Source of the DNA: a virus
Taxonomy: Duplodnaviria > Heunggongvirae > Uroviricota > Caudoviricetes
Reading direction: 5' to 3' (one strand)
Length of the DNA: 64,000 nucleotides
IMG/VR virus record: IMGVR_UViG_3300017649_000004
The translations under genes were made by a program, and so were the position numbers. Under the pieces are notes generated by a model, which searched no databases, was not told the DNA's origin, and saw only the letters and a program-made list of their open reading frames with translations. Positions 29,401 through 58,991 of this stretch are shown here, piece by piece. Every line of letters begins with the position of its first letter. Positions within the stretch are counted from its first letter, which is position 1.

Positions 29401-29413
29401 CGGACAATCAGAC

Positions 29414-30903: not shown

Positions 30904-30907
30904 CCGG

Positions 30908-33048: not shown

Positions 33049-33072
33049 CCCGCCGATCCCGCGAGGTTCCTT

Positions 33073-40061: not shown

Positions 40062-40516
40062 CGATGGGAAACACTGTGAACGTCAAGTTCAAGAAGCTGC
40101 ATCCGCAGGCAAAGATTCCGACCTATGGCTCGGCGGATGCGGCCGGCTGCGACCTTTATGCTGCATTCGATGGTGATCCGATCGCTGTGGCTGGTGGCTC
40201 GACCGTGACCATTGACTGCGGCTTTGCGATGGAGTTGCCGGCGGGATACGAGGCTCAGGTTCGGCCGCGCTCCGGCCTTGCTGCCAAGCACCAGCTCACC
40301 GTCCTCAACACGCCGGGCACCATCGATGCTGACTACCGCGGCGAAGTGAAGGTCATCCTGCACAACGCAGGTGAGCGCACCTACTACGTCAATCCCGGCG
40401 ATCGCATCGCGCAGATGGTCATTCAGCCGGTCTGGCGTGCCGAGTTCGAGGAAGTGGAGGAGCTTTCCGACACTGTTCGTGGCACTGGCGGCTTTGGATC
40501 GACGGGGACGAACTAA
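40058..40516 (+). CDS. dut: dUTPase (trimeric dUTP diphosphatase)
   Basis: Motifs 'GSADAAGCDLYA', 'RPRSGLAAKH', 'GTIDADYRGEV', and a C-terminal 'RGTGGFGSTG'. Confidence 0.8.
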   Translation: MTMGNTVNVKFKKLHPQAKIPTYGSADAAGCDLYAAFDGDPIAVAGGSTVTIDCGFAMELPAGYEAQVRPRSGLAAKHQLTVLNTPGTIDADYRGEVKVILHNAGERTYYVNPGDRIAQMVIQPVWRAEFEEVEELSDTVRGTGGFGSTGTN

Positions 40517-41136: not shown

Positions 41137-41143
41137 ACCGCGC

Positions 41144-41200
41144 GCATCCCAAGCGCGCATTGCTATAACTCTAGTCGTAAGTCAGCGCTTACTAGCAGCG
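41144..41200 (+). promoter_or_regulatory. full promoter/5'-hairpin element
   Basis: GCATCCCA - N10 - TGCTATAA ... GTAAGT-cagcgc-TTACTAG. Confidence 0.5.
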
Positions 41201-41217
41201 CAGAGAAAGAGGAAAAC

Positions 41218-41703
41218 ATGACGAAAATCTCTCTCAACTCGGTCCAGGCTGAGGTCGAAAAGGAAGCGGAAGAGCGCCTGGTGCAGTTTGAGCAGGAGCG
41301 CCTGAAGCTGGAAGCGCTAAACGCGCTGGAGCTGGTGCGCCAGGTCAAGAGCGTCGTCGAGGACGCTGAGAAGGCAGCTGACCTGCTGCGCACGGCTCGC
41401 GACGATCTTGAGGATCATCTTGCCGTGCTCAAGCAGCAGCTTCGCGTCGTCAAGGACGTTCGCCGCTCCGGGAAGCGCCTCCTCGAGCGCGTTGCGGAAG
41501 TCGCTGATGCCGAAATGCCGATCGAGGAGTTTGTGGCGATGAACTCCGACCTTTCGGAATACGTCGAGGACGCCCGTAACGATCTGGATGACGCCCACGA
41601 GAATCTGATGGCGGACATTATCGCCCGCACCGGCGACCTCGATCCGGTCAATGCCAAGCAGTGCCCGTGTCCGGCTTGCATCGAGAACCGGCTCGCCGCC
41701 TAG
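41218..41703 (+). CDS. hypothetical coiled-coil protein
   Basis: 161 aa, helical and E/L/A-rich, with a C-terminal 'CPCPAC'. Confidence 0.5.
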   Translation: MTKISLNSVQAEVEKEAEERLVQFEQERLKLEALNALELVRQVKSVVEDAEKAADLLRTARDDLEDHLAVLKQQLRVVKDVRRSGKRLLERVAEVADAEMPIEEFVAMNSDLSEYVEDARNDLDDAHENLMADIIARTGDLDPVNAKQCPCPACIENRLAA

Positions 41704-41721
41704 TTCCGGTTCTCAATGCCA

Positions 41722-41751
41722 GGCGGGGCTCACGTAGCCCCGCCTTTTTTT
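41722..41751 (+). terminator. rho-independent terminator
   Basis: GGCGGGGCT-cacgt-AGCCCCGCC stem followed by TTTTTTT, 19 nt after the stop at 41703. Confidence 0.75.
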
Positions 41752-41782
41752 CATGTCGTGAGCGCGCATGTTCCTGCCGCGC

Positions 41783-41824
41783 TCCATTCTGATGCTCGCT
41801 ATAAGTAAGCACATACTTATTCAG
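41783..41824 (+). promoter_or_regulatory. full promoter/5'-hairpin element
   Basis: CTCCA - N10 - CGCTATAAGTA - agcaca - TACTTAT, upstream of the GHKL gene. Confidence 0.5.
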
Positions 41825-41850
41825 AGGCGCGACACATACAGAGGGTCAAC

Positions 41851-44274: not shown

Positions 44275-45587
44275 ACATCGTTCGCGTAGTCTCCGCCATC
44301 ACCGCCAGGGGCGGCGTGACGCTCTATCTTGCTGACGGCAGGACGATCAACCTGCCGGCGCGCTCCTATCGCACCGAAGCAATCATGCGCGAGATTGCCT
44401 GCCCGCTCGCCGAGCGCAAGCAGCCGGAAATCGACCTCGACCTCTACTCCATCGAGGCGCGCATCGAGAACAGGACCGGTGGTTTCGTCTCGTTCCTCAA
44501 GCGCAAGTGGAAGGACTTTGCCGCTATGTTTGGCGGCAAGGCGCCTGACGGCGCCACGCCGGAGGCAGACACGCTGGTTGCTGTCGTCAACGGCGTCGAA
44601 ATCCCGGGCATGGAGAAGATCGAGCGGCAGCTCGAACATGCGGCCTATAAGGACTGCGTTGGCCTTCAGAAGTTCCTGGGGCGCCTGTCCACGGTGATCA
44701 ACGAGCGTGGGCACACGGTGCAGGAGCTGCTCGACTTCCTGTCCAAAGGCGACCTTCCGATCGCTGATGACGGCATGATCGTCGCCTACAAGTCGCTGGT
44801 GCGCGAGGGTGACCACTATCTCGACTGTCACTCGCGCTCGGTGCGCCAGCGCGTCGGCTCGCTTGTGCGCATGGACGTCAACATGGTCGATCCGAACCGG
44901 CGCATTGAGTGTTCGCACGGTCTGCATGTCGGCCGCCGTGACTATATGGGCCAGTTCAGCGGTGACGTGATGACCCTGATCCTGATTGACCCGGCAGACG
45001 TCGTTGCCGTGCCGCTCAAGGATCCGAGCAAGATGCGTGTGCGCGCCTATCAGATCGTCGGCGAGCTGACTGAGGAAGGCCGGCAGCTGATCCGTCAGAA
45101 CAAGCCGATGACGAGCGTTGAGGCTGACGCCAAGCTTCTTGCCTCTGTGCTGCGCGGCGAGCGCGTCCCGGTCATCGAGACTGTCGACATCGGCAAGAAC
45201 GGCATGGTGATCGACATTCGGGAGGAAAAGCCTGCTGTAGTGCCGGTCGTTGAAGAAAAGGCCCATGCGCTCGATGACTCCGGCGAGAAGGCTGAGGAGC
45301 TTGTTGCGAATGTGCGCGAGACGGTCAAGGAGGTCGTCGAGCAGCAGAATGCGGCAGCGGCCGAAGTGACCACCGAGAACGTGTCCGCGGATCCCGCAAA
45401 GCCCGAGAAGGCTGCAAAGCCGAAGTCGAAGAAGCCGAAGAAGGGCAGCTACGATCACATTCCGGAGAAGTGGCGCCAGGCTTACATCGACGTGACCACC
45501 GGCAAGATGAGCCAGCGCGAGGCGGAAAAGGTTTACCGCATCTCCGCCAAGAAGCTGCGCGCGCTCATCCGCGAAAACGCCAAGTAA
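44271..45587 (+). CDS. hypothetical protein with Lys-rich C-terminus
   Basis: 438 aa. ATGA overlap with the GHKL gene. The C-terminal region is 'KPEKAAKPKSKKPKKGSYDHIPEKWRQAY...'. Confidence 0.55.
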   Translation: MNIVRVVSAITARGGVTLYLADGRTINLPARSYRTEAIMREIACPLAERKQPEIDLDLYSIEARIENRTGGFVSFLKRKWKDFAAMFGGKAPDGATPEADTLVAVVNGVEIPGMEKIERQLEHAAYKDCVGLQKFLGRLSTVINERGHTVQELLDFLSKGDLPIADDGMIVAYKSLVREGDHYLDCHSRSVRQRVGSLVRMDVNMVDPNRRIECSHGLHVGRRDYMGQFSGDVMTLILIDPADVVAVPLKDPSKMRVRAYQIVGELTEEGRQLIRQNKPMTSVEADAKLLASVLRGERVPVIETVDIGKNGMVIDIREEKPAVVPVVEEKAHALDDSGEKAEELVANVRETVKEVVEQQNAAAAEVTTENVSADPAKPEKAAKPKSKKPKKGSYDHIPEKWRQAYIDVTTGKMSQREAEKVYRISAKKLRALIRENAK

Positions 45588-45656
45588 CACCCACAACATG
45601 ACCATCACTTGCTGACTTAAAGTGTCAGCAAGTGATTACTTACAGGAGACAAAGAC

Positions 45657-45854
45657 ATGCGTTTTCTTGACAGCATCCTTGACTTCGTGTGGTCGATCGC
45701 CTGCTTCGCGCTCGCAATCTCGATCCCTTGCTCATGGGTCACGCACGTCATCCGCTGCATTCTTGACGAGTCCTGGATCCTGCTGATCCTCGGCGCCATC
45801 GTCTTCCCGATCGGCTGTGTCCACGGTTTCGGCGTCTGGCTGGGGATCTTCTGA
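45657..45854 (+). CDS. small membrane protein
   Basis: 65 aa with two hydrophobic segments. Preceded by an 11-bp-stem hairpin (45606-45634) followed by ACTTAC. Confidence 0.4.
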   Translation: MRFLDSILDFVWSIACFALAISIPCSWVTHVIRCILDESWILLILGAIVFPIGCVHGFGVWLGIF

Positions 45855-46001
45855 TGGCGAGCTCAGACTCTACTACGCTCGCCTTCCTCGCGAAGTCGTT
45901 TGGTGTGGCCGTTCTGATTTCGGCTGTGATTGCGCTGTTCGTAGCGGCCGTCCTTGTGACGGTCGCGCCATGCCCACCCTCGTCCTTCTGAGGAGAGTTC
46001 T

Positions 46002-46643
46002 ATGAGTGACCGCAAGAGCCACTTCATGTTCACGGCCAGCGGCCAGAAATACTGGCCGATGGAGCCGCGCAGCGAGGAGGTTGACATCGAGGTGATCGCG
46101 CATCACCTCGCCAACCAGTGCCGCTACAATGGCGCAACGCGTCATCCGAAGTTCCCGCGCCGGATCTTCTATTCGGTCGCTGAGCACTCGGTCTATGTCG
46201 CCCACTACATCGAGCACGATCTCGGTCAGCCGCAGTTCGCGCTTGAAGGTCTGCTGCATGATGCAGCCGAAGCCTACATTGGCGACCTCATTCGCCCGCT
46301 CAAATACGACGATGCCTTCCGTGAGCCGTTCTTGCGGGTGGAGCAGCGCAACGAGGTTCGGATCGCCACGCGTTTCGGATTGCAGTATCCGTTCCCGCAA
46401 GCCGTGCGCCTGGCGGACGAGGCTGTGACGGCCGCCGAGGTTCAGCAGATCATCGCTGAGACGCCGGGCGAGGACTTCAAGACCGGCTATCTGCACGATG
46501 CGGCGACCACCGCGCCGGTCAAGATCGCGATGCACCCTCCGTTCGAAGCCAAGAACCTCTTTATGAACACGTTCCGCCGGCTGATGCTGGAGCGCAGCAA
46601 GTTCCGCGCAGTCCCGCAGTCGCTTGCGCTATATTGTAAGTAA
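46002..46643 (+). CDS. HD-domain phosphohydrolase (YfbR-like 5'-deoxynucleotidase)
   Basis: 'IAHHLANQCRYNG', 'VAEHSVYVA', and 'LLHDAAEAYIGD' form the H...HD...D metal-binding set. Confidence 0.65.
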   Translation: MSDRKSHFMFTASGQKYWPMEPRSEEVDIEVIAHHLANQCRYNGATRHPKFPRRIFYSVAEHSVYVAHYIEHDLGQPQFALEGLLHDAAEAYIGDLIRPLKYDDAFREPFLRVEQRNEVRIATRFGLQYPFPQAVRLADEAVTAAEVQQIIAETPGEDFKTGYLHDAATTAPVKIAMHPPFEAKNLFMNTFRRLMLERSKFRAVPQSLALYCK

Positions 46644-46657
46644 GGACATACTAGCGA
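46611..46657 (+). promoter_or_regulatory. full promoter/5'-hairpin element
   Basis: GTCCCG - N10 - CGCTATATTGTAAGTAAGGACATACTAGCG. It overlaps the stop of the HD gene. Confidence 0.45.
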
Positions 46658-46664
46658 GACGCAA

Positions 46665-46904
46665 ATGACCGACGCGGACAACTGGCCGACATTCGCTGAG
46701 GAGCTCGGCAGGAAGACCTCTTCCGAGCTTGAGAAATGGACGGTCGCCTACGAGGCGGGAAAGATCACCTTACGGGAGTTCTACCTGATCGTGAGCACCC
46801 TCTACGACGCGACCAGTGGCCTGGCGCCGAGGGACATCAGCAACCTGCTCGCGGACGTCCATCAGTTCCTGCGAGTGAAGGCGAAAAGGAAGAAAGCCGC
46901 TTGA
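46665..46904 (+). CDS. hypothetical small protein
   Basis: 79-aa ORF. Confidence 0.4.
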   Translation: MTDADNWPTFAEELGRKTSSELEKWTVAYEAGKITLREFYLIVSTLYDATSGLAPRDISNLLADVHQFLRVKAKRKKAA

Positions 46905-46912
46905 GAAAGCAA

Positions 46913-47170
46913 ATGTGGTTGGTGTGCGACGAGTGCCACACCGAGGTGATGATCAGCCGCCTGACGCGAAACTGCATTGAAGCGCCCTGCCCTGCCTGTG
47001 GCGCGTCAATGCTGTCGGAGGACGATTACAAGATCGCGAAGAAGGCAATGCGCTGGAACAGCGTCGCAAACTGGCTCGGCAAGCTTGCGGGGCTCTTCCG
47101 GCAAGTCGAGACGGTTCAGATACACACGCACGTCAAGGACGGGCAGGTTTCGCGGAGGATCCTGTCGTGA
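46913..47170 (+). CDS. zinc-ribbon small protein
   Basis: 85 aa from an internal ATG: 'MWLVCDECHTEV...APCPACGAS' (CxxC...CxxC). Confidence 0.4.
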   Translation: MWLVCDECHTEVMISRLTRNCIEAPCPACGASMLSEDDYKIAKKAMRWNSVANWLGKLAGLFRQVETVQIHTHVKDGQVSRRILS

Positions 47171-47706
47171 GCAAGTTCCCGAAGGATCGCTGGATCATCG
47201 ACGCAATCAAGCGCGGCTACATCATTCCGCGTGAAGACGGTTCGATCCTTCGGGCGATCTCGGCCGATAAGAACGGCAACGTTGATCGCTCGAAGGGCTA
47301 CCGGCTCGTCACGCAGCAGATCCACAAGAAGTCCGGCCGGGTCTATTTCAATTTGAGCTGGAGGGGCTTCACCAAGTCCGTGCTGGTCAACCGGGTGATT
47401 GCTCTGCGCTTCCACCCGAACCCCCTCAACTTGCCGCAGGTGAACCACGTCGATGGCAACAAGGAGAACAACGCGGCCAGCAATCTCGAATGGTCGAGCG
47501 GCTCCGACAACGAGAAGCACGCTCACCGCACGGGGCTCAAGACCGGTCGCGGTTCTGCAAATTCGAACGCCAAGCTGACGGCAGATGACGTTCTGTGGAT
47601 CCGAAACAATCCGTCGGTCCCTGACGCCGAGTGCGCCGCGAAGTTTGGCGTGTCGCGTTCGACCATCATCAATATCCGCAAGGGCAAGACCTGGACGCAT
47701 CTTTAA
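47167..47706 (+). CDS. HNH homing endonuclease (HNH_3/AP2-type)
   Basis: 'VNHVDGNKENNAASNLEWSSGSDNEKHAHRTG' matches the HNH_3 motif. C-terminal 'AKFGVSRSTIINIRKGKTW' is HTH-like. GTG start overlapping the upstream stop. Confidence 0.7.
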   Translation: MSKFPKDRWIIDAIKRGYIIPREDGSILRAISADKNGNVDRSKGYRLVTQQIHKKSGRVYFNLSWRGFTKSVLVNRVIALRFHPNPLNLPQVNHVDGNKENNAASNLEWSSGSDNEKHAHRTGLKTGRGSANSNAKLTADDVLWIRNNPSVPDAECAAKFGVSRSTIINIRKGKTWTHL

Positions 47707-47716
47707 GGAGGCGACA

Positions 47717-48076
47717 ATGCCTGAACGTCAGGGAGAAATCTTCGTCTTTGGCTCGAACCAGGCCGGCGTCCATGGCGCCGGTGCAGCCAAATATGCGCGC
47801 GAGCGCCACGGTGCCGTCATGGGCCAGGGTGAAGGCTTGCAAGGCACAAGCTACGCCATTCCCACCAAGGACTGGACCATTCGCACACTGCCGCTCGACA
47901 TCATCCGCATCTTTGTCGACCGCTTCCTCGACTTCGCGCGAGAGCATCCGGAGATGTCCTTCTACGTGACGCCGATCGGATGCGGACTGGCGGGCTACAA
48001 GCGCGCCGACATCGAGCCGCTGTTCAAGGACATGCCGGCCAACTGCCGCTTTGCGGAGACGTGGGACGATCACTGA
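47717..48076 (+). CDS. hypothetical protein
   Basis: 119 aa from ATG with RBS AAGGAGG. Motif 'IFVFGSNQAGVHGAGAAKYA' is unassigned. Confidence 0.45.
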   Translation: MPERQGEIFVFGSNQAGVHGAGAAKYARERHGAVMGQGEGLQGTSYAIPTKDWTIRTLPLDIIRIFVDRFLDFAREHPEMSFYVTPIGCGLAGYKRADIEPLFKDMPANCRFAETWDDH

Positions 48077-48176
48077 TGGCTCGTGGCCCTGACCGGTTCA
48101 TCAACGCTGTGTGGGCCGCTCAGGGCTGCGCCGGCATCGCTTTATGTTTGCATTGGATCTTCACGGAGTTCTTTGG

Positions 48177-48740
48177 ATGATCGTCGCGAAAATCGACATC
48201 GAAACGACCGGGCTTCTGGCGCCGGATCATCGCATCATTGAGGTCTATACGAGCCTCTACAAGAACCGGAAGAAGGCGTTCGTCTACGACCAGCGGATTG
48301 ATCCGCAGCGCTCGATTTCCGCGGAAGCGCAGCGTGTTCATGGCATTGCCTACACCGATCTGCTCGGCAAGCCGACCTGGGATACCGTGGGCCCGGTCCT
48401 CTACAAAGTCCTCGAGCGCGCCGACCTGTATGTGTGGCACAACGGCGACGAGTTCGACGGTCCTTTCCTCGATATGGAGTTCAAGCGCATCGGGCTGCCG
48501 GGCCTGCCTAAGCGGCCGTCGATCGACACCATGGCGGAAGGTCTCTGGGCGACCCACAACGGCAAGAAGCCGAAGCTTGCCGAACTCTGCTTCGCCTGCG
48601 GCGTGCCGTATGACCCGGCAAAAGCACACGCAGCCTCCTATGACGTTGAGGTCATGGCCGAGTGCTTCTACCGCGGAGTCGAGTGGGGTTTCTTCAAGCT
48701 CCCGGAAGTAGCGAGCGAGGAAATGCGCCTCGCCGCTTGA
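48177..48740 (+). CDS. DnaQ-like DEDDh 3'-5' exonuclease
   Basis: Exo I 'IDIETTGL', Exo II 'YVWHNGDEFDGPFL', Exo III 'ASYDVEVMAECF'. Start taken at the internal ATG of ORF 48111-48740. Confidence 0.7.
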   Translation: MIVAKIDIETTGLLAPDHRIIEVYTSLYKNRKKAFVYDQRIDPQRSISAEAQRVHGIAYTDLLGKPTWDTVGPVLYKVLERADLYVWHNGDEFDGPFLDMEFKRIGLPGLPKRPSIDTMAEGLWATHNGKKPKLAELCFACGVPYDPAKAHAASYDVEVMAECFYRGVEWGFFKLPEVASEEMRLAA

Positions 48741-48833
48741 GCTCCCTGCCGCTCTCCAAGAATTGCTGCTGTATAAGTAAAACATAAGCAATTCAAAGCG
48801 TTAACGACGCAAGTGCGAACACAGGAGAGCATC

Positions 48834-49661
48834 ATGCAGGACGTAACAGCAATCAACACCGACGTCGCAGCGACGATGGAAAGCATCGACATGGCACTGG
48901 CTGATCTTGACCTCGAGAATGATGAGGTCGTCGAGGAGCTCGACGCGGCGCTCGAGGATCTGGAGGCGATCGCGGAAGAAGAAGCCGTGGTTGAAGAGCC
49001 GGAGGTTGTCGAGGAGCAGGAAGTCGAAGCAGCTGCCGAGGAGTCCACGCTGACCGCTGCGGCGATCGATGACGACCTGCTCGCGGATCTCGACCTGGAG
49101 CTTGCTCGCACCGAAGCCTACAACGCCCAGGAGTCGGCGCCGATCGCCTCTGAGGAGGAGCAGGAAGCCATCAAGGCCAAGGGCGCTGCTCGCGCCAAGA
49201 AGGCATCGAGCGGATCGAGCACGCCTCGCGCAGCAACGCCGCGCACGCCGCGCGACATTAACGCGGTGCCGGCAGAGGTCTTCGTTCTGAACGGCGACGT
49301 TGCTGCGATGGACGATGCGGCCAAGGATGCTGCGAAAGCTGCAACGATGGCGCTGCTGCCCAAGCAGGTGAAGGTCGCTGAGAAGTTCGAGAACCTTCTC
49401 ATGTCGCTCGCCGCCGGCAAGCTTCCCTCGCGCTACACGGTCGTCGCTTACAAGGCGCTCGCCGCGCGCAAGACGCTGACCTCCGCTGATCTGGTCGGCG
49501 CATACAAGGCAGAAGGTCTGAAGGAAGGCACTGCGCGCTCGCAGTCCGGTCAGATGATGAACCTCTTCTCGACCTTGCAGATCGCTGACCGCTCCGGTCA
49601 GACGCTGACGCTGCGCGAGGACTCGAACCTCGCTGCTCGCCTTAACGCACTGCTGAGCTAA
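48834..49661 (+). CDS. hypothetical protein with acidic N-terminus
   Basis: 276 aa from ATG with RBS AGGAGAG. D/E-rich N-terminal third, Ala-rich C-terminus. Confidence 0.5.
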   Translation: MQDVTAINTDVAATMESIDMALADLDLENDEVVEELDAALEDLEAIAEEEAVVEEPEVVEEQEVEAAAEESTLTAAAIDDDLLADLDLELARTEAYNAQESAPIASEEEQEAIKAKGAARAKKASSGSSTPRAATPRTPRDINAVPAEVFVLNGDVAAMDDAAKDAAKAATMALLPKQVKVAEKFENLLMSLAAGKLPSRYTVVAYKALAARKTLTSADLVGAYKAEGLKEGTARSQSGQMMNLFSTLQIADRSGQTLTLREDSNLAARLNALLS

Positions 49662-50568: not shown

Positions 50569-50817
50569 ATGCACTTCCTGATTTCTGCCGTCACCGAGAC
50601 TGCAACTGACTGGTTGCTGCGCATCAAGGAGACGCTGCGCTGGCTCGCCGATGGAGGCTCCGACCGGGCGCTCCGGCAGTCCATCAGCGATAACCTGCCC
50701 GACCTCAGCACCTACCAGGTCGCGCTAATCCTCGGCGTTCTCGCGCTCGCCTGGGCGTTCTACGCCTGCCTGTTCCTGCACCCGGAAGACGAGCGCCGTG
50801 ATCGAGATATTTACTGA
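50569..50817 (+). CDS. small membrane protein
   Basis: 82 aa. Its start codon lies inside the loop of an AAGT-atgc-ACTT hairpin. Confidence 0.4.
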   Translation: MHFLISAVTETATDWLLRIKETLRWLADGGSDRALRQSISDNLPDLSTYQVALILGVLALAWAFYACLFLHPEDERRDRDIY

Positions 50818-51244
50818 CGGCGGCTGCCGGCCGAACCCGGGCGTCGGCGCATGGGCTGCGATCCTGCTGTGGAAGGGGCACATGCGTGAGCTGACCGGCT
50901 CGGAGCGTGGGACGACCAACAACCGGATGGAGATGATGGCCGTCATCAAGGGGCTCGGCGCGATCAAGAAGCCGAACCAGAAGATCACCGTCTACACCGA
51001 CAGCAAATACGTCCAGCAGGGCATCACTTCCTGGATCAAGAAGTGGAAGAAGAACGGCTGGAAGACCACACAGAACACGCCGGTCAAGAACGAGGATCTC
51101 TGGAAGAAGATGGATCGGCTCCTCGGTGAGCATGACGTCACCTTCCGGTGGATCAAGGGCCACAACGACAACCCGCTCAATGAGCGCGCCGACGCGCTCT
51201 GCACCCAATCGATCAACCGTGAATATGGAGGCGTCTATGTCTGA
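50798..51244 (+). CDS. rnhA: ribonuclease HI
   Basis: 'IEIFTDGGCRPNPGVGAWAAIL', 'RMEMMAVIKGL', 'VYTDSKYV', and 'NERADALC' form the canonical RNase H D-E-D-D set. Confidence 0.85.
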   Translation: MIEIFTDGGCRPNPGVGAWAAILLWKGHMRELTGSERGTTNNRMEMMAVIKGLGAIKKPNQKITVYTDSKYVQQGITSWIKKWKKNGWKTTQNTPVKNEDLWKKMDRLLGEHDVTFRWIKGHNDNPLNERADALCTQSINREYGGVYV

Positions 51245-51906: not shown

Positions 51907-51964
51907 AACCTGCCGCAGTCCAACTGCGCGCTCGCTATAGATAAAACGCAATAAATTCAATACG

Positions 51965-52366
51965 TTGAGCGAAAGAACCGCTTCAACGAGGAGGGAAGCT
52001 TTGCCCGAATTTCAGAAGTTCGCGCGCGCGGTGAAGGCGCGCTTTGATCAGATGTCCAAGCATGAGCTTTACGTGGTGGACGTCGACGACCTCTTCGACA
52101 AGTATCTGGCCGCCTTCCCGGAAGGCACCAATCCCATCTACCGCGTGCGCACCTATCACGACGGCTCCTACGACAAGCACTTCATCCGTGCCGTGGGTAA
52201 TGTAGTGTCGATCGCCGACGGTAAGGTTTCCACGCTGTGGGATCTGAAGGGACTGCCTTACCCGTATGACGTCGTTGCCAAGCGCCTCGACCTGGAGGAA
52301 GATGACGGCGGGCCTTGCCTCTGGATTAAGGCAAGAAACGCCTATCCCGGCACCCGCGGGCAGTAG
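51965..52366 (+). CDS. hypothetical protein
   Basis: ORF with a non-ATG start. TTG at 52001 with RBS GGAGGG is an alternative start. Confidence 0.4.
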   Translation: MSERTASTRREALPEFQKFARAVKARFDQMSKHELYVVDVDDLFDKYLAAFPEGTNPIYRVRTYHDGSYDKHFIRAVGNVVSIADGKVSTLWDLKGLPYPYDVVAKRLDLEEDDGGPCLWIKARNAYPGTRGQ

Positions 52367-52414
52367 AATCTTGTTTAATCACCACCAAACAAGCTAACAG
52401 AGAAATATAGCACA

Positions 52415-53365
52415 GTGCTCAAACAGTTTGCCCTAGATTACCAGTCGCATGCGTTCCGCTCCACGAGGGCGATACATGCCGACTGTTTCGAGTGGCTGGG
52501 TCGCATTCCCGCAGACAGCCTCCACGCCATTGTGACCGACCCGCCCTATGGAGTGAAGGAATACGATTTCGATCAATTGGAGAAGAAGGATAACGGCAAC
52601 GGCGGCATATGGCGCATCCCGCCCTCCTTTGATGGTCATATACGGTCGCCCCTCCCGCGATTCACAGCCCTCGATAAGAAAGAGCGTGAAGCCATTGACC
52701 GCTTCTTCTTTGAGTGGGGCAAACAGGTCATTCATGCCCTTCGGCCCGGCGGGCATGTATTTCTCGCCAGCAATTCATTTTTGTCGCAGCTGGTGTTCAG
52801 TGCTCTAGTGCGCAGTGGGCTTGAGTTTCGCGGGGAGTTCATCCGGCTAGTGCGCACCCTTCGAGGAGGGGACCGCCCAAAGAACGCTGAGGAGGAGTTC
52901 CCGGATGTGTGCTCCATGCCGCGAGGCTGCTACGAACCGTGGGGCATTTTCCGCAAGCCGATCCCGACAAAGATGACTGTCGCCGAGTGCCTGCGCACGT
53001 ATCAGACCGGCGGGCTGCGTCGTCTCGCTGATGGCAACCCTTTTGCGGATGTCGTGCTCAGTGAGCGGACGCCGAAACGCGAACGTGAGATTGCGAACCA
53101 CCCAAGCATCAAACCGCAATCGCTGATGCGCCAGATCGTTCGCGCAGCCCTCCCTTTGGGTGAGGGCGTGATTGCCGATCCATTCATGGGCTCTGGCTCC
53201 ACCGTGGCAGCAGCGGAGGCACTAGGGCTACATTGCGTGGGCGTAGAGCGGTATCGGGACTATTACGACATGGCTGTCGAAGCAGTGCCGCAACTCGCTC
53301 GCGTCGATGTTCGATCCTTTGCCCACAAGGAAGTGGAGCTGGAATCGCAGCTCCATCTCCTCTGA
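52415..53365 (+). CDS. DNA methyltransferase (beta-class N6-adenine/N4-cytosine)
   Basis: Motif IV 'IVTDPPYGV' precedes motif I 'ADPFMGSGSTVAAAEALG'. No hairpin promoter element lies upstream. Confidence 0.8.
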   Translation: MLKQFALDYQSHAFRSTRAIHADCFEWLGRIPADSLHAIVTDPPYGVKEYDFDQLEKKDNGNGGIWRIPPSFDGHIRSPLPRFTALDKKEREAIDRFFFEWGKQVIHALRPGGHVFLASNSFLSQLVFSALVRSGLEFRGEFIRLVRTLRGGDRPKNAEEEFPDVCSMPRGCYEPWGIFRKPIPTKMTVAECLRTYQTGGLRRLADGNPFADVVLSERTPKREREIANHPSIKPQSLMRQIVRAALPLGEGVIADPFMGSGSTVAAAEALGLHCVGVERYRDYYDMAVEAVPQLARVDVRSFAHKEVELESQLHLL

Positions 53366-54037
53366 CTACAACGGCAAGCCTGGCGCGTTGTAGATCCAGT
53401 TCGCCATCATCTTCTCGTAGCCGGAGTTGGTCACGCTTGCCGTGATCGTTCTCCGGCTAGTTTCGGACCGCCCGGCGAACTTCCAATCCTCTTTGGTCAA
53501 TTGTGCGCCCACAACGCGGAGGAACCGGAAAGGCATGGGTGGCACCCCGTTCGCCTCATCAACCGCTCGGTTGCCGTCGAACATGATCACCATCAACCAG
53601 CAATCCTCCGCGTTGTGCCCTTGCCACGACTTGAGGTAGCGAGAGGCCTTAACCTCGATACCTTCGTTGCAGTATTGCATCGAATCGTTAGGGAACCGTC
53701 CAGCTGGAAGAAGGTCTGGGTGCCCGTTGTGGTAACGATTCTTGACGATGCCCGGGGAGTGTTTGGGCAGATTCGCGGTCATGAACTCGCCCACAATGCT
53801 GCTAAAGTTCGCGGGCATCAGCATTGTCTCTAAACGAGGTGATGCGTTCTCATGCAGCCGAACATTAACCATCTGCATGAAGCCGATGAAATCGTTCATC
53901 GCCGCGCAGATGTGTTCGATCGTCACGCCGTAAGGGATAACCGCATTTGGGTTGAAGTGCTCGATCTTTACCGGCTCAGGGTTGCAGGCTTGGAATTCTA
54001 GTTGTTCTTCTGGTGTCATCCGCTCCGCTTGCTCCAC
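53366..54037 (-). CDS. candidate type II restriction endonuclease (PD-(D/E)xK)
   Basis: 223-aa minus-strand gene convergent with and abutting the MTase. It has a PD...ExK arrangement ('HPDLLPAGRFPNDSMQYCNEGIEVK'). Confidence 0.45.
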   Translation of the reverse strand: MEQAERMTPEEQLEFQACNPEPVKIEHFNPNAVIPYGVTIEHICAAMNDFIGFMQMVNVRLHENASPRLETMLMPANFSSIVGEFMTANLPKHSPGIVKNRYHNGHPDLLPAGRFPNDSMQYCNEGIEVKASRYLKSWQGHNAEDCWLMVIMFDGNRAVDEANGVPPMPFRFLRVVGAQLTKEDWKFAGRSETSRRTITASVTNSGYEKMMANWIYNAPGLPL

Positions 54038-54094
54038 AAGTTATTACAACACTGTGATGCTAGCGGTGAACAAGACAACGTGCCAGAGGGATGA

Positions 54095-54325
54095 GTTGCG
54101 CCCAGATCGCTTGCGCTGGCGAGGGAGAAGGCCGACGCGATCCGCGAGAAGCTGGCGCGGGGAGAAGACCCGAGAGCAGAAAAGAAGCCGGCCCGCATCG
54201 TCACCTTCGCCGACTGCATGATCGACTTCCACCGGCACTTTGCGGCGTCTCGCGAGAGGGCGCTCGCCCGGCTTGAGGAGATCAGGCGGCAGATGCAGGA
54301 GGAGGAAGAGGACGAAGCCGCGTAA
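54095..54325 (+). pseudogene. tyrosine-integrase N-terminal fragment (remnant)
   Basis: A start-less frame translates to '...AREKADAIREKLARGEDPRAEKKPARIVTFADCMIDFHRHF...', resembling the integrase arm-linker region ('ARERRDEARKLLAEGIDPSEARKAEK...TFGEVAEEW' type). No catalytic domain follows. Confidence 0.35.
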
Positions 54326-54337
54326 CTTCCTCACGCA

Positions 54338-54383
54338 GCCCAAATATGTGCGCGCTATACAGTAAGTATCAGCTTACTTACGG
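54338..54383 (+). promoter_or_regulatory. full promoter/5'-hairpin element
   Basis: GCCCA - N10 - CGCTATACAGTAAGTA - tcagct - TACTTAC. Confidence 0.5.
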
Positions 54384-54394
54384 AGTGTAACACG

Positions 54395-54523
54395 ATGAAG
54401 GATCCGCTCGAGCCGCACATCAACCAGGACGGCACCGCGTTCAATGGCAACCACGCCGTGATCGCGGTGTCCGCCCTGATCGCAGTTCTCGCCGGTATCG
54501 GCGCAATCGTCAGCTTGTTCTGA
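54395..54523 (+). CDS. small TM peptide
   Basis: 42 aa, 'MKDPLEPHINQDGTAFNGNHAVIAVSALIAVLAGIGAIVSLF'. Preceded by a full promoter/hairpin element. Confidence 0.35.
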   Translation: MKDPLEPHINQDGTAFNGNHAVIAVSALIAVLAGIGAIVSLF

Positions 54524-54535
54524 CAGGAGGTCAAA

Positions 54536-54652
54536 TGGGTCTGCTGACCGTCATCGGAGGCCTGGTAGTCGCCGGTCTCATCGTTCTCGGCGCTTACACC
54601 GCCGCAAATCGCATCACCAATTCCAGCCCGAAGCGCAGAAAGGGAAACTAGG
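54536..54652 (+). CDS. small TM peptide
   Basis: 38 aa, 'MGLLTVIGGLVVAGLIVLGAYTAANRITNSSPKRRKGN'. RBS CAGGAGG. Confidence 0.35.
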
Positions 54653-54653
54653 C

Positions 54654-55502
54654 ATGTCCATCAGGGGTGTTATCGGCCTGATCGGTCTCTTCTTCGTCGT
54701 CGCCATCCTCGGTGGCTCGTTCTACCAGGTTGACGAAGGTCACCGCGGTATCATTCTGCGCAATGGCGCGCTCGTCGGCGTTGCCGATCCTGGCCTTCAC
54801 ATGAAGATGCCGTTCGTGGACGAGGTTCGCAGCATGAGCGTCCAGTCGCACGCCCTGGAGCTCAAGAACGAGCCTGCCTACTCCGCCGATCGCCAGCAGG
54901 CGGACATCACCTTGTCGGTGAACTACGCTCCGCTGCCGAGCGAGGTCGCTTCGATCTTCAAGTCCTTCGGCGGTATCGAAGGCATGGAGGCGCGTGAGTT
55001 GCAGCGCCAGCTCAAGCAGGAGCTCAAGACGGTCTTTGGCCGCTACACGGCTGATACGGCGATCCGCGAGCGCGCGAAGCTCCACGCTGACATTGCCGAA
55101 GCCCTTGGCAACATCGGCCGTGGCTACATTCGCGTCGAAGGCATGAACATCGAGAACATCGACTTCTCGAAGGTCGTCGAAAAGGCAGCTGAGGATCGCG
55201 CCGTCGCTGAAATGGGTGTTGCGACCAAGCGCCAGGAACTCGAACGCGAGAAGGTCCAGGCTGAAATTCAGGTCACGCAGGCTCAGGCGCGAGCTGACTC
55301 CGAATATGCAGTCGCCGAAGCAGCAGCGAAGGCAATTCGTGTGAAAGGTGAAGCTGAAGCCCACGCCATTCGCGAACGCGGTAAGGCTCTGCGCGAGAAC
55401 CCTGAGCTGGTTGGTCTGATCACCGCGGAGAAGTGGAACGGCGCACTGCCGCAGCAGATGGTCCCGGGTAGCGCAGTGCCGTTCGTCAGTCTGAACAAAT
55501 AA
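54654..55502 (+). CDS. SPFH/band-7 (prohibitin/HflC-like) membrane protein
   Basis: N-terminal TM helix followed by 'FYQVDEGHRGIILRNGALVGVADPGLHMKMPFVDEVRSMSVQ' (SPFH core), then a coiled-coil C-terminus. Confidence 0.75.
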   Translation: MSIRGVIGLIGLFFVVAILGGSFYQVDEGHRGIILRNGALVGVADPGLHMKMPFVDEVRSMSVQSHALELKNEPAYSADRQQADITLSVNYAPLPSEVASIFKSFGGIEGMEARELQRQLKQELKTVFGRYTADTAIRERAKLHADIAEALGNIGRGYIRVEGMNIENIDFSKVVEKAAEDRAVAEMGVATKRQELEREKVQAEIQVTQAQARADSEYAVAEAAAKAIRVKGEAEAHAIRERGKALRENPELVGLITAEKWNGALPQQMVPGSAVPFVSLNK

Positions 55503-55659
55503 TCGTCCTCCCAAGACGAAGCGAAAGGGGCGGCGCATCTGCGTCGCCCCTCTTTTTGTTATCCGCCGGCTCCCATGGGCAGAACATTCCGCTCGCGTTC
55601 CTGCCGACTTCCAAGTGTTCGAGTGCGATTATCTTTGCATCAGCACAAAGGAGCACCGA

Positions 55660-55956
55660 ATGTATTTCTTCTATCCTCCGCACAGCGAGAACAAAGGCGC
55701 GCAGATCAACATTTGGAAATGGAACGGCACGAAGCAATACCTCAAGCACTACGATCAGATGCTCTACCTTCATTTCGTCCTGAAAAATCCTCGGGCGAGT
55801 GAGCAGGAAAAGAGGATCGCCAGGCACGAGATCGGCATCGCCGAAAAGAAGCTCGCCTTCTGGACCCGTCACCCGAACTTTGATGAGCAGGAGGCACAGA
55901 AGGGCGCGGAAAAGCTCAAGAAGATGTGGTTAAGCGGCGAGCGTGTCGTCGCTTAG
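55660..55956 (+). CDS. hypothetical protein
   Basis: 98 aa from ATG with RBS AAAGGAG. Confidence 0.4.
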   Translation: MYFFYPPHSENKGAQINIWKWNGTKQYLKHYDQMLYLHFVLKNPRASEQEKRIARHEIGIAEKKLAFWTRHPNFDEQEAQKGAEKLKKMWLSGERVVA

Positions 55957-56145
55957 AGGGTCGCTATAAGCGTCGGTCCCGAAGAACAGGGCCTCGACCG
56001 CCAGCTGCGCGAAGTCCGTGGAGCCTTCCTGAAGGAAGGTTTCACGGTCGAAGCTGTGGCCGGCGTTGACGCAGAACTCCTCGATGGAGTCCAGAATGAA
56101 ATCCTGCAATCGCTCCGCGACTGCCAAAAACTCGCTCCTGGTCAT
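55930..56145 (-). CDS. hypothetical small protein (minus strand)
   Basis: 71 aa, occupying a + strand gap. Plausible RBS AGGAA. Confidence 0.3.
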   Translation of the reverse strand: MTRSEFLAVAERLQDFILDSIEEFCVNAGHSFDRETFLQEGSTDFAQLAVEALFFGTDAYSDPLSDDTLAA

Positions 56146-56369
56146 TTGTGTTCCTGTTTTGTTCTCTCCGGAATAAATTCCTAGCTGCTTCGCTCGGCGC
56201 CGGCAACAGGATTCTCGACCCGCTCACAACCCGCGTCAGACCCAAGCTGACGCGCGCTATAAGTGACATGTGAGTAAGACGAGCAAAGGAGATAGCTAGA
56301 CGATTACATAGCTAGATAGCTATATCATGCTCCGATCTTCCGTTTCTGAAATTGCCTGGGAGCATGATG

Positions 56370-56525
56370 ATGACCAAAACAAACCCTGTAGCAAAAGCTC
56401 TCGCGAACCGTGCGCTGCATCAGCGCAAAGTCAAGCCGCGCAAGGGGCGCGGGAGCTACACCCGCAAGAACCAGAAAATCCCGGATGTTCCAGCCTGGTC
56501 GCGCATCGAGCCGCCGCCAGGATAG
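56370..56525 (+). CDS. small basic ORF with ArfA-like motif (tentative)
   Basis: About 52 aa, 'MTKTNPVAKALANRALHQRKVKPRKGRGSYTRKNQ...'. The KGRGSY-RK stretch recalls the ArfA ribosome-rescue motif. Confidence 0.2.
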   Translation: MTKTNPVAKALANRALHQRKVKPRKGRGSYTRKNQKIPDVPAWSRIEPPPG

Positions 56526-56538
56526 AAAGGCCTACCCC

Positions 56539-56802
56539 ATGATCGAGGCGTTAGCGATCACGGTCACAGTTTTAATGGCGGACGCAAAGCCCCAGGACGA
56601 CGCGCGCATCGTGCCATTCCGAGTCATGCCTCTGGAAGAATGCCACGATTGGCAGCGCCGTCAGCGCAGTCATCCGAAGGAGACAGTCGACCGGACGACC
56701 TTCAGGAAGGTTGAAGCCGTCTACTACGAGTGCCTGACCGTTGGTCCGGAGCTTCAGACCTTGGTGGGTATATCGGCTGGAATGATGTCGGCTCCGAAGT
56801 AG
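56539..56802 (+). CDS. hypothetical protein
   Basis: 87 aa from the internal ATG of ORF 56410-56802. Confidence 0.4.
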   Translation: MIEALAITVTVLMADAKPQDDARIVPFRVMPLEECHDWQRRQRSHPKETVDRTTFRKVEAVYYECLTVGPELQTLVGISAGMMSAPK

Positions 56803-57002
56803 TGAGCCGCTCTGGCGAACTCGTCCAGGTCGAAGCATACCGTCGCCTGGAGCTTAAATGCGTCGAACTTAATCCCCCGCTGCGTGAAGTGCCCTTCTAC
56901 GCTATTCCAAATGGTCCGCTCGAGGGAGCGAACCTCCTCATCAAATCGCTCTCTGTCCATCTTGTGGAACTCAGTGTCCCGGAGTTTTGGTATCAAGGAC
57001 AT
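56754..57002 (-). CDS. hypothetical protein (minus strand)
   Basis: 82 aa with a coherent sequence. It converges on the 56539 ORF. Confidence 0.35.
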   Translation of the reverse strand: MSLIPKLRDTEFHKMDRERFDEEVRSLERTIWNSVEGHFTQRGIKFDAFKLQATVCFDLDEFARAAHYFGADIIPADIPTKV

Positions 57003-57163
57003 GCCCTATACCGAGCGTAAATTCACCTTGCAAGCATCCCCGAGCCGCAAATTTTGGCTTATGGCGAACATTGTTTTTTCCGAGTTAACATAATGATTTA
57101 ACTGGCATTACCTAATATTTCACGGTATGTCTGAGCCGAGCCCTGCAAGGCGGGAGAAACGCA

Positions 57164-57490
57164 GTGGGAAGACGCGTAAATATCTTTACGGCCCTCACCA
57201 AATCCAGACCGAAACGAGACAATCTAGTGGAGCCGGGAGACGTAGCTCTCCTGCTGAAAAGCGACGGTTCCACGGAAGTGCTTACATTCGGTTATGACAC
57301 TTCCAGATTGGAGCAGCCGGATTATCTGCTGACGGAGATGGACCGTTTCATGATGAAACAGGGCGAGATAATCTTCGCGCTCGCCGTGGCAGCCAACAGC
57401 CCCAAGATCATGGATCAGCTAATCGCCTGGGCCGCGGATCCCGAGGTTGTCGACTTCGCCACGCTCCACGCCATGCAAAAGAGACACTGA
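57164..57490 (+). CDS. hypothetical protein
   Basis: 108-aa ORF. Confidence 0.45.
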   Translation: MGRRVNIFTALTKSRPKRDNLVEPGDVALLLKSDGSTEVLTFGYDTSRLEQPDYLLTEMDRFMMKQGEIIFALAVAANSPKIMDQLIAWAADPEVVDFATLHAMQKRH

Positions 57491-57497
57491 CCACGGC

Positions 57498-57758
57498 ATG
57501 AACAGACTGAGGCTTGAATTTGCGACCCTCGGGTTCCTCTCGGAGATGCGCAAACAGTTCGCCTTGCTGCACCCCGACAAGGAATGCCCGATCGGCAGCT
57601 TCGAGGAATACTCCCCGGAGCAGCGGTCTGCCCTGATGGCGGCCGTCCAAAAGGCGATCAAGTTCGGCGCCGACGAAAGTGACGCCCTCTTCATCCAGTG
57701 GCGCCAGCGCCGGGAAGAGCAAGCCGCGCAATCTTCCGACAGCAGTCCACTACAGTAG
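57498..57758 (+). CDS. hypothetical protein
   Basis: 86 aa from an internal ATG. Confidence 0.4.
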   Translation: MNRLRLEFATLGFLSEMRKQFALLHPDKECPIGSFEEYSPEQRSALMAAVQKAIKFGADESDALFIQWRQRREEQAAQSSDSSPLQ

Positions 57759-57803
57759 TCGCTATAACGTAAGTATGCACTTATTGACGGAGCATACTTA
57801 TGG
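57744..57803 (+). promoter_or_regulatory. full promoter/5'-hairpin element
   Basis: AGTCCA - N10 - CGCTATAACGTAAGTATGCACTTA ... AGCATACTTATGG. The start codon is inside the distal arm. Confidence 0.45.
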
Positions 57804-58087
57804 TGCTGGAAATGCTACTCGCGACGGCAATCGCGCACGACAAGCTCGGGCTCGATATGCGCGCTACGCGTGACGGAACAAACGAACCAACCGTGCGCCT
57901 GTGGGCGCGCGAGGGCGGCGTCAAATTCACGCTGGCTGAACTCTCCGAAAGCCAGCTCAACGCGATGATCACCGAGGCAAAGCAGGGCCTGAAGCCGACA
58001 GTGCCCGAGCCGGTCACGCGCGTTCCTGTAGATCCGCAGGTCACCACCTATCAGCGTCCTCGGCCGCATCTGACGGTGGTGCAATGA
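57800..58087 (+). CDS. hypothetical protein
   Basis: 95 aa. Its ATG is embedded in the downstream arm of the promoter/hairpin element. Confidence 0.45.
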   Translation: MVLEMLLATAIAHDKLGLDMRATRDGTNEPTVRLWAREGGVKFTLAELSESQLNAMITEAKQGLKPTVPEPVTRVPVDPQVTTYQRPRPHLTVVQ

Positions 58088-58290
58088 AAGTCCTCTACCA
58101 GAAGCTCAAGCAGGTCGCCGACAAGGAGGAGCGCCCCTACAAGGTGGGAATCGAGGTTGTGACCGGCTCATACCTTGAGGGCCAGGTCGTTGCGGCCGAC
58201 AGCTACCACCTGCATCTGATCAGCGATGACTACCACTGGTTCCTCAATTGGGATCACATCGTGGGGCTGACGATCAAATGGACGGCCTGA
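58084..58290 (+). CDS. hypothetical small protein
   Basis: 68 aa, ATGA overlap. Confidence 0.4.
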   Translation: MKVLYQKLKQVADKEERPYKVGIEVVTGSYLEGQVVAADSYHLHLISDDYHWFLNWDHIVGLTIKWTA

Positions 58291-58712
58291 CGATCACCGG
58301 AGGCGACGAGCAGCTCCACGAGGTCTTGAAAGCGATCCTCGGCGGCAATCGGCGCAGTGCCCGTGTTAGCGGATACAGTCCCGATGGCTGTTGGATCGAC
58401 GAATACACGACGACCCTGCGGCCGATGCCAAAGGTCTACGCGACCTTCACCGACGAGCGTGTGCCCGACGTGATGGTCCAGATCGTGGACGGCAACATCG
58501 AGCATCCCCGGTTCAAGCCTGTGAAGAGCCGGAAGGGCGAAACCCTGCGATTTCAGACGCCCTACCAGGTCAAGGTGAACGAGAAGGTGCTGCCCAAGGT
58601 CTACATGACACTGCGGGGAGCATCGAACAACGCCAAGACGATCCTTCGGGAACACGTCGAGGCATACATCAGGGAGAACATCGCCAACAATCCGACCTTC
58701 GGAATGTTCTGA
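58278..58712 (+). CDS. hypothetical protein with C-terminal ...NPTFGMF tail
   Basis: 144 aa from ATG at 58278. Ends 'IANNPTFGMF'. Confidence 0.5.
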   Translation: MDGLTITGGDEQLHEVLKAILGGNRRSARVSGYSPDGCWIDEYTTTLRPMPKVYATFTDERVPDVMVQIVDGNIEHPRFKPVKSRKGETLRFQTPYQVKVNEKVLPKVYMTLRGASNNAKTILREHVEAYIRENIANNPTFGMF

Positions 58713-58743
58713 GCCCGGCGGACGGCGAGCAATCGCCGAGCTC

Positions 58744-58796
58744 GGCCCACGCTTTCGCTCGTTATAACGTGTAAGTAAGCGCATACTAAGGAGGGT
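58744..58796 (+). promoter_or_regulatory. full promoter/5'-hairpin element
   Basis: GGCCCA - N10 - CGTTATAACGTGTAAGTAAGCGCATACTAAGGAGG. Confidence 0.45.
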
Positions 58797-58799
58797 GCT

Positions 58800-58991
58800 A
58801 TGCAACCGCCGAAGAACGTTTTGGATTACCTCGCTGATTGTGCTGAACAGGCAGGCGAGGCCTTTCCGGGCGAGATTAAAGCCCGACTCTGGAATCCCGG
58901 CGCCCACGGTCCTTCATCGACCACAGCGCTGATCGTAGGGCTTGTCGATGGGCGTGACGTGAAGATCACCGCTGAGGTGATGCTGTCATGA
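58800..58991 (+). CDS. hypothetical small protein
   Basis: 63 aa, RBS AAGGAGGG. Confidence 0.4.
   Translation: MQPPKNVLDYLADCAEQAGEAFPGEIKARLWNPGAHGPSSTTALIVGLVDGRDVKITAEVMLS

Follow-up and report, generated by a model that had tools for sequence, protein, structure and literature searches.

A type II restriction-modification cassette, probably captured recently from bacterial DNA, adjoins an unrelated, conserved peptide-SPFH operon in a tailed phage related to Rhizobium phages

A 64,000-nucleotide stretch of tailed phage DNA (Caudoviricetes; IMG/VR record IMGVR_UViG_3300017649_000004), hereafter called the window, was analyzed around positions 52370–57160, which an initial annotation had read as a single foreign island holding a DNA methyltransferase, a convergent candidate restriction endonuclease, an integrase fragment, two small membrane peptides, and an SPFH (band-7) protein. 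The window is part of a phage genome of ~60% guanine-plus-cytosine (GC) content, and its replication genes share ~75% DNA identity with those of the Rhizobium phages RHEph10, RHph_X66, and B1VFA. Contigs identical to the window were found in several metagenomes, the longest measuring 82.5 kb, and the region described here had no DNA match among 50,697 deposited phage records. By these comparisons the phage is evidently large and kin of virulent Rhizobium phages. The two genes at the center of this analysis abut tail-to-tail, with the methyltransferase gene ending at 53365 and the nuclease gene beginning at 53366 on the opposite strand (Table 1).

The methyltransferase matched Pfam family PF01555 (E value, 4e-22) over residues 37–289 and profile positions 2–221 of 221, and the PADLOC MTase_II model PDLC03215 with an E value of 3.6e-102. 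The catalytic DPPY motif (52538–52549, residues 42–45) precedes the S-adenosylmethionine motif FMGSG (53183–53197, residues 257–261), and this order, with motif IV N-terminal to motif I and the target-recognition region in between, is that of the beta class. The class assignment made in the initial annotation could therefore be read directly from the motifs. The solved relatives nearest by sequence are the adenine methyltransferases CcrM, MboIIA, DpnA, and RsrI, which together with DPPY suggests N6-adenine as the methylated base. A Halorubrum tailed virus, whose methyltransferase came out as the closest among phages (48% identity) and which has a convergent 244-aa open reading frame (ORF), was considered as a phage parallel and rejected, since its ORF is not homologous to the 217-aa nuclease.

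The initial annotation was right about the places and strands of the ORFs, and its start for the minus-strand nuclease gene needed correction: it is not GTG 54037 but ATG 54019, as in 100%-identical database proteins. The annotation had also proposed a PD…ExK catalytic core. Among 40 homologues of the nuclease, with identity down to 27%, G120 and K124 were invariant and P101, D102, E122, and H135 nearly invariant, so that P101-D102 and E122-V-K124 bear out the proposed core; E78 was invariant among the closer homologues. No Pfam or NCBIfam family matched the nuclease, its comparison with the sequences of PDB chains returned chance matches only, and no match was obtained in the 50,697 phage records or in PHROGs. 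The PADLOC REase_II model gave a weak match (E value, 2.2e-7). In a large protein collection, 3418 homologues were found at E ≤ 0.001, forming 486 clusters at the 50% level, and all of them, distant cluster members included, are unnamed or called “hypothetical.” The family is without assignment or name in the libraries searched (Pfam and NCBIfam).

An AlphaFold model of the nuclease, built on the 40-member alignment, had a mean predicted local distance difference test score of 96 and a predicted template modeling score of 0.92. In this model, E78 lies on the preceding helix, D102 just ahead of a strand, and E122-x-K124 within the next long strand; as modeled, the layout of these residues is that of a standard PD-(D/E)xK nuclease. 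The best structural matches were EcoRV-like (beta-branch) restriction enzymes, and in a test of this branch the model was nearer to EcoRV, PvuII, NaeI, and HincII than to EcoRI or BamHI. Comparison with a viral structure library gave nothing informative. Structure prediction, which had been suggested as a check of the minus-strand ORF, thus supports a restriction endonuclease fold, and the modeled protein is probably a homodimer of the EcoRV-like branch, a fold that suggests cleavage to blunt ends or 3′ overhangs.

The pairing of the two genes was examined in bacterial genomes. A profile built from 15 nuclease sequences found 551 matching stretches in one-per-species GTDB genomes, and 80 of these loci were fetched. 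An orthologous methyltransferase (58–94% identity) lies convergent to and directly after the nuclease gene in 79 of the 80 loci, with an intergenic gap of -14 to +202 bp; at the remaining locus, the available sequence stops 132 bp past the nuclease gene. The loci belong to Proteobacteria, Cyanobacteria, Acidobacteriota, Planctomycetota, Chloroflexota, Actinomycetota, Bacteroidota, and others, and the same pairing was seen in three further unrelated contexts. The methyltransferase is thus not an orphan. Taken together, the linkage and the predicted fold are strong evidence for an orthodox type II restriction-modification (R-M) pair. The convergent type II arrangement recognized at the outset is supported by fold, linkage, and, as described below, composition, and neither a non-nuclease fold, nor an orphan methyltransferase, nor flank-like composition was found for the cassette. 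A homologue of the R-M pair with 64% identity was also seen on a 12.7-kb Roseinatronobacter contig, in a mobile-element-like region with genes for SSB, ArdC, RecT, and YqaJ; this region has 51% GC, zero GTAC, and zero CTAG.

The extent of the foreign DNA is given by its similarity to bacterial loci. The block 52282–54110 shares 97.5% nucleotide identity with a 4-kb metagenomic contig (L019), which carries a tRNA-Ser 3′ end and prophage-like genes, and 85.5% with a Thiobacillus chromosome, in which the gene order is tRNA-Ser(GCT), nuclease, and methyltransferase, followed by terminase and resolvase genes. Both alignments end at identical window coordinates. In tetranucleotide distance, this cassette falls at the 99.6th percentile, whereas 54395–57160 is ordinary (66th percentile); the cassette therefore differs from its flanks. 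The low GC content noted by eye for 52370–57160 was confirmed as a value (0.571 versus 0.598 for the window, within the lowest 0.2% of stretches of the same size) but not as an island, since it comes from two separate, unrelated patches, the nuclease gene (0.549) and 55503–57160 (0.548), with the intervening SPFH module at an average value (0.603).

The nuclease gene differs from that of L019 by one nucleotide, which is synonymous. The methyltransferase gene differs at 37 synonymous positions and in four codons that change the amino acid, and the clustering of differences in a mosaic patch (Table 1) suggests that a second allele took part in recombination. More than 20 contigs, obtained from several independent samples, carry the insertion, which comes in two structural variants; neither ORF is disrupted in any copy, and the substitutions are mostly synonymous. 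In all 23 contigs read that carry the nuclease, which include both variants and several samples, its ORF is intact and the protein identical.

Both junctions of the cassette bear scars. At the left, the gene remnant upstream of the methyltransferase gene matches phrog_1735 at profile positions 3–99 of 673 only. Its first ~108 residues are homologous to DUF8224/phrog_1735 proteins, the homology ends at residues 105–110, and cassette DNA supplies the last ~28 codons. The family is widespread in viral contigs, where its members are 660–683 aa long. Because homology stops at this point and the homologues are of full size, the junction at 52282 truncates a phage gene of ~670 aa at about residue 106.

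At the right junction, a start-less frame had been likened to the arm and linker region of a tyrosine integrase. The frame matched Pfam Arm-DNA-bind_3 (PF13356) with an E value of 1.5e-5 and 25.5 bits, below the 27-bit cut-off, over profile positions 55–81 of 83 only. Its integrase-derived part reaches ~54225, with a tail (…RERALARLEEIRRQMQEEEEDEAA) beyond; the idea that this tail is what the truncated phage gene lost at its C-terminus was rejected, as no similarity was found. Four sibling phage contigs, 97–99% identical to the window, contain 405 bp of extra DNA at this junction. These 405 bp make up the missing part of a 134-aa ORF, which matched Arm-DNA-bind_3 with an E value of 2.2e-18 (66.6 bits), and they include the last 11 nt of a tRNA-Ser gene, after which comes the spacer also present in L019. 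The window aligns to one of the siblings, L016, on both sides of the deletion, with 13 nt common to both alignments. Relatives of the 134-aa ORF came from Roseibium, Bosea, and Hoeflea and covered only its first 75%, and a search for full-length integrase relatives returned only short or truncated proteins. The integrase catalytic domain (PF00589, R-H-R-Y) is absent, as the start-less frame ends at 54325 and similarity stops near “TFADCM.” Judged from these matches, 54095–54325 is an integrase gene fragment and not an integrase.

The adjacency to a tRNA gene recurs in bacteria, where nine of the 80 loci have one no more than 300 bp from the cassette. This fits a cassette carried as cargo at the edge of tRNA-integrating elements. 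The two earlier suggestions, that the frame is an integrase fragment and that the cassette arrived from an integrative element, are both supported by the sibling scars (the arm-domain ORF and the tRNA-Ser 3′ end) and by the tRNA adjacency in bacteria. The tRNA-Ser remnant in L016 (7513–7545; deleted from the window) reads GGCGGAGAGG-CGGTCAT-CCTCTCCGCCA, with 7 nt linking the two acceptor-stem strands; this remnant is a tRNA gene minus its interior or else an attP-like hairpin. Overall, we consider it likely that a cassette of ~2 kb, encoding a type II R-M system, was captured recently from bacterial DNA by illegitimate recombination, together with the tRNA-Ser 3′ end and the 5′ part of a P4-type integrase gene.

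Table 1. Features of the cassette, its junctions, and the adjoining phage genes (window coordinates;., no strand).
Feature	Position	Strand	Basis or remark
Phage promoter-like motif CGCTATAGATAA	51933–51944	+	Upstream of gene remnant and methyltransferase gene; function inferred
Truncated phage gene remnant (DUF8224/phrog_1735)	51965–52366	+	phrog_1735, E 2.1e-29
Putative horizontally acquired R-M cassette	52282–54110	.	Block common to bacterial loci
Beta-class N6/N4 DNA methyltransferase	52415–53365	+	316 aa; PF01555, PADLOC MTase_II
Mosaic patch in methyltransferase gene	52466–52762	+	38 of 46 differences from L019 lie here
Candidate type II restriction endonuclease	53366–54019	-	217 aa plus stop; PD-(D/E)xK residues
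Nuclease E122-x-K124	53648–53656	-	Catalytic pattern
Nuclease P101-D102	53714–53719	-	Catalytic pattern
Nuclease E78	53786–53788	-	Catalytic pattern
Native upstream region of nuclease gene	54020–54097	-	GGAG ribosome-binding site; possible TTCACC-N16-TGTAAT promoter
Start-less frame; to ~54225, end of P4-type integrase arm domain plus linker	54095–54325	+	Arm-DNA-bind_3
Junction of 405-bp deletion relative to siblings	54098–54110	.	Imperfect 13-bp repeats
Phage promoter-like motif GCTATACAGTAAGTA	54354–54368	+	Ahead of first peptide gene
42-aa peptide, C-terminal transmembrane stretch	54395–54523	+	phrog_22089, E 4e-7
38-aa peptide, N-terminal transmembrane stretch	54535–54651	+	Size, position, hydrophobicity
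SPFH/band-7 (prohibitin-like) membrane protein	54654–55502	+	PF01145, E 1.3e-28
Terminator-like hairpin	55526–55551	+	11-bp stem, T run; closes peptide-SPFH unit
98-aa conserved phage protein	55660–55956	+	44% to RHph_X66 coding sequence (CDS), same position; gene callers
71-aa phage gene	55930–56145	-	34% to RHph_X66 minus-strand CDS QWY83091.1
82-aa phage gene	56754–57002	-	33% to RHph_X66 minus-strand CDS QWY83093.1

Two intergenic motifs recur in the window. CGCTATANNTAA has six exact matches, at 24776, 24796 (minus strand), 33385, 41797, 51933, and 62964, where none was expected; the copies at 24776 and 24796 are divergent. GCTATANNGTAAGTA has six exact copies, all on the plus strand (38008, 38490, 46628, 49729, 54354, and 57761), and at up to two mismatches it has nine matches against 0.11 expected; it also occurs in RHph_X66. 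Both motifs are probably promoters for a sigma factor of the phage itself. The left end of the region had been described as lacking promoter and hairpin elements; this is true only in part, as one promoter-like motif lies upstream, at 51933–51944, and another at 54354–54368. Ahead of the nuclease gene, TTCACC-N16-TGTAAT is a possible promoter.

Several palindromes are strongly depleted in the 64-kb window: GTAC occurs 0 times versus ~95 expected, TGGCCA 0 versus 13, ATGCAT 0 versus 9.6, CACGTG 0 versus 9.3, GCATGC once versus 19, and CTGCAG three times versus 24. GTAC is also absent from the 60 kb of RHph_X66 and RHEph10 that were fetched (L011–L013). The depletion has the marks of, and evidently is, strong and lineage-wide restriction-site avoidance. 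Because relatives without the cassette show the same avoidance, it is uninformative about the R-M system, and deducing the recognition site from it was rejected. The two GTAC sites of the methyltransferase gene in L019 read ATAC and GCAC in the phage (52640; 52854–52855). That both are mutated in the phage copies suggests selection after acquisition, with the sites purged in keeping with the total GTAC avoidance of the phage. The sole GCATGC of the window, at 52447, lies inside the acquired methyltransferase gene.

A mechanism can be proposed for the pair. The methyltransferase, which is co-directional with the phage genes, would probably be transcribed, along with the gene remnant, from the promoter-like element at 51933. 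Its target would be a short and probably palindromic site, each copy of which in the phage DNA would be modified, probably at adenine N6. The nuclease would be expressed from its own retained 78-bp upstream region against incoming convergent transcription, an arrangement expected to favor the methyltransferase over the nuclease, and would cut unmodified copies of the methyltransferase’s site. Phage DNA would be packaged in modified form and would stay at least hemimethylated during replication, so that neither its own nuclease nor the same R-M system in a host would attack it, and host DNA and the DNA of co-infecting phages would be cut. We tentatively suggest that this virulent-type phage may use the captured pair as a weapon, the nuclease shredding the host chromosome and co-infecting or superinfecting phages. 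Its own DNA would be pre-methylated as well as palindrome-depleted, and the nuclease would be the first member to be studied of a widespread but unnamed family of restriction enzymes, possibly with a new specificity.

The main rival of the proposed mechanism, also a possibility to be held with reserve, is that only the methyltransferase is useful to the phage, through self-methylation that lets it evade the same R-M system in hosts. The nuclease gene would then be a passenger of recent arrival, either silent, poorly expressed, or decaying. The nuclease gene is one nucleotide from the bacterial copy and would have had no time to decay, it runs against the phage gene direction and into convergent transcription, and part of its upstream region is deleted in the window variant. 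The uptake by phages of protective methyltransferases from host R-M systems is documented (PMC4190342), and the near-identical bacterial copy found here suggests that hosts carry the cognate nuclease. On the other side, the nuclease protein is identical, and its ORF undamaged, in both variants; the 405-bp deletion ends 78 bp short of the start codon; and the native upstream region with its ribosome-binding site has been kept.

Several observations weigh against a captured and working R-M pair as proposed above. The intactness of the nuclease shows recency rather than proven selection, since a gene one synonymous nucleotide away from its bacterial copy says little about selection in the phage. 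A scan with the sigma-70 consensus found no passing promoter for either R-M gene. A Foldseek comparison of the nuclease model with solved structures gave weak matches (best E value, 0.02), with no solved close relative. The virulence of the phage is read across from that of its relatives. A sibling phage with an empty site was not found when the SPFH protein was followed through viral and metagenome contigs and by exact-protein look-up, and the cassette is present in all close relatives whose contigs extend far enough upstream. Context, and not a before-and-after pair, is what supports the direction and timing of the transfer.

It is highly improbable that the 217-aa protein, instead of being the restriction partner of the methyltransferase, belongs to some other type of PD-(D/E)xK nuclease (methyl-directed, nicking, repair, or homing). 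Many non-restriction nucleases have this fold, and Pfam and NCBIfam gave no restriction-enzyme match. Its strict convergent linkage to one methyltransferase family, and its divergence in parallel with that family across 79 of the 80 loci, point instead to a restriction partner, and a linked methyltransferase could not be combined with an enzyme that is methyl-directed.

The reading of 52370–57160 as one foreign defense island, with the R-M pair and an SPFH/small-peptide module acting together, has in effect been refuted, and we give it hardly any credence. It had in its favor the lowest GC content among stretches of the same size and the presence of minus-strand genes. However, 54395–58991 is collinear with RHph_X66, minus-strand genes included, so that the region is not missing from related genomes as one block; bacterial similarity ends at 54110, tetranucleotide composition from 54395 to 57160 is ordinary, and a phage-type promoter motif stands at 54354. 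The foreign DNA comprises only 52282–54110 and the integrase scar to ~54225. The membrane peptides, the SPFH gene, and the genes at 55930–56145 and 56754–57002, all of which had been regarded as foreign, match RHph_X66 strand for strand, and genes from 57164 on have RHph_X66 counterparts in the same order and strands. All ten of the matched RHEph10-type Rhizobium phage records contain a “prohibitin family protein” with 50–52% identity to the SPFH protein, and its identity to proteins of Cronobacter, Erwinia, Serratia, and Yersinia jumbo phages is 41–44%. Given the promoter motif at 54354 and the terminator-like hairpin, the peptide-SPFH genes appear to form a native phage transcription unit, and the proposed link between an R-M system and a membrane module falls away. 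Gene order and homology show everything from 54354 onward to be phage backbone, evidently inherited. Therefore, by sequence comparison, a recently captured bacterial type II R-M cassette adjoins a conserved phage peptide-SPFH operon to which it is apparently unrelated.

That the junction is an assembly chimera of phage and bacterium is scarcely credible: the window resembles metagenome-assembled contigs and some contigs (L154 and L155) break just upstream of the first peptide gene, but more than 20 contigs show the same junctions even though their samples and assemblers (JGI, ENA, and Logan) are independent, the two structural variants are 97–99% identical over both junctions, and GTAC sites have been purged from the phage copy.

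The initial annotation was correct in describing two small peptides, each with one hydrophobic stretch, and an SPFH protein. The 42-aa peptide is homologous to a 47-aa ORF of RHph_X66 and shares IN.DG.AFNGN with it. The 38-aa peptide has counterparts of 37 aa in RHph_X66 and 38 aa in RHEph10, identified by size, position, and hydrophobic N-terminus without a similarity score, and in both phages small ORFs stand directly before the SPFH gene. The SPFH domain (PF01145) covers residues 25–202 behind the hydrophobic N-terminus VIGLIGLFFVVAILGG, and the protein had weak matches to the HflC and HflK models. The two minus-strand genes downstream are apparent paralogues, and their 3′ ends overlap plus-strand genes. 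Between them, at 56370–56525 on the plus strand, a 51-aa ORF with the ArfA motif KGRGSYTRK matched Pfam PF03889 (E value, 2.3e-5; 24.2 bits, below the 25.5-bit cut-off). Peptides resembling it are encoded by Citromicrobium phage RXM, where the annotation is ArfA (alternative ribosome-rescue factor A), and by Ochrobactrum phage OC and Caulobacter phage Cr30; the ORF may thus encode a ribosome-rescue factor of the phage.

Upstream, 40058–49661 is also collinear with RHph_X66. The collinear blocks are separated by a slot whose content varies in this phage lineage, 49766–52281 in the window versus 25873–33156 in the fetched part of RHph_X66 (L013). In the window, the slot content consists of a 219-aa gene, an RNase HI gene (50798–51244; NCBIfam match, E value, 2.2e-59), small genes, and the gene remnant, with the R-M cassette next to them, and in RHph_X66 of RtcB and nicotinamide adenine dinucleotide (NAD)-salvage genes, the latter encoding a nicotinamide mononucleotide (NMN) adenylyltransferase/NUDIX protein and a nicotinamide phosphoribosyltransferase.

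The locus appears to be an unusually clean case of the capture of a bacterial defense system by a phage, legible from sequence in both junctions, the tRNA end, the integrase fragment, a subsequent deletion, and the onset of adaptation (GTAC loss). If the nuclease is active, it bears on phage-phage competition and host takeover. The nuclease family, with 551 GTDB stretches and thousands of metagenomic homologues, is a target for restriction-enzyme discovery. Neither the SPFH gene nor the small-peptide genes should be assigned to a defense island. The SPFH protein shares with HflK/C, prohibitins, and their phage homologues an N-terminal transmembrane segment and the SPFH domain (PF01145); its gene, which is conserved among phages and follows small membrane-peptide genes, lies outside the acquired DNA.

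Among known enzymes, the phage methyltransferase shares PF01555 and the order DPPY … FxGxG with CcrM, M.MboIIA, DpnA (M.DpnIIB), and M.RsrI, but the likeness is restricted to the conserved motifs (E value, 4e-12 at best), and its target-recognition region is unrelated to theirs. The best structural matches of the modeled nuclease are the NaeI endonuclease domain, ThaI, SwaI, EcoRV, HincII, NlaIV, PvuII, SfiI, and BglI. In common with EcoRV-like type IIP enzymes, it would have a small single domain with an acidic helix residue, PD, and ExK on successive strands, and its gene, as in those systems, adjoins a convergent, separate methyltransferase gene; it is only 8–13% identical to any of these enzymes. 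With tRNA-linked islands that carry P4-type tyrosine integrases, the cassette shares its tRNA adjacency in many bacteria, and sibling phages keep the scars; it differs in that the phage has an integrase fragment lacking the catalytic domain, and nothing suggests that the phage integrates.

Complete R-M systems encoded by viruses include the type II pairs of chlorella viruses (CviAII) and EcoP1I of phage P1. The chlorovirus nuclease degrades host DNA, and P1 is temperate, EcoP1I protecting the lysogen. As in the window, a nuclease and a protecting methyltransferase occur in one viral genome, but the enzyme families and hosts differ. Complete R-M pairs appear to be uncommon in phages of this virulent type. 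Another parallel is offered by lactococcal 936-type phages, likewise lytic-type phages with a bacterial R-M methyltransferase able to protect from the cognate nuclease; their methyltransferases are reported to have been acquired from host R-M systems (PMC4190342). Unlike the 936-type case, the intact cognate nuclease and the scars of the donor, a tRNA end and an integrase fragment, appear to have come along with the methyltransferase here.

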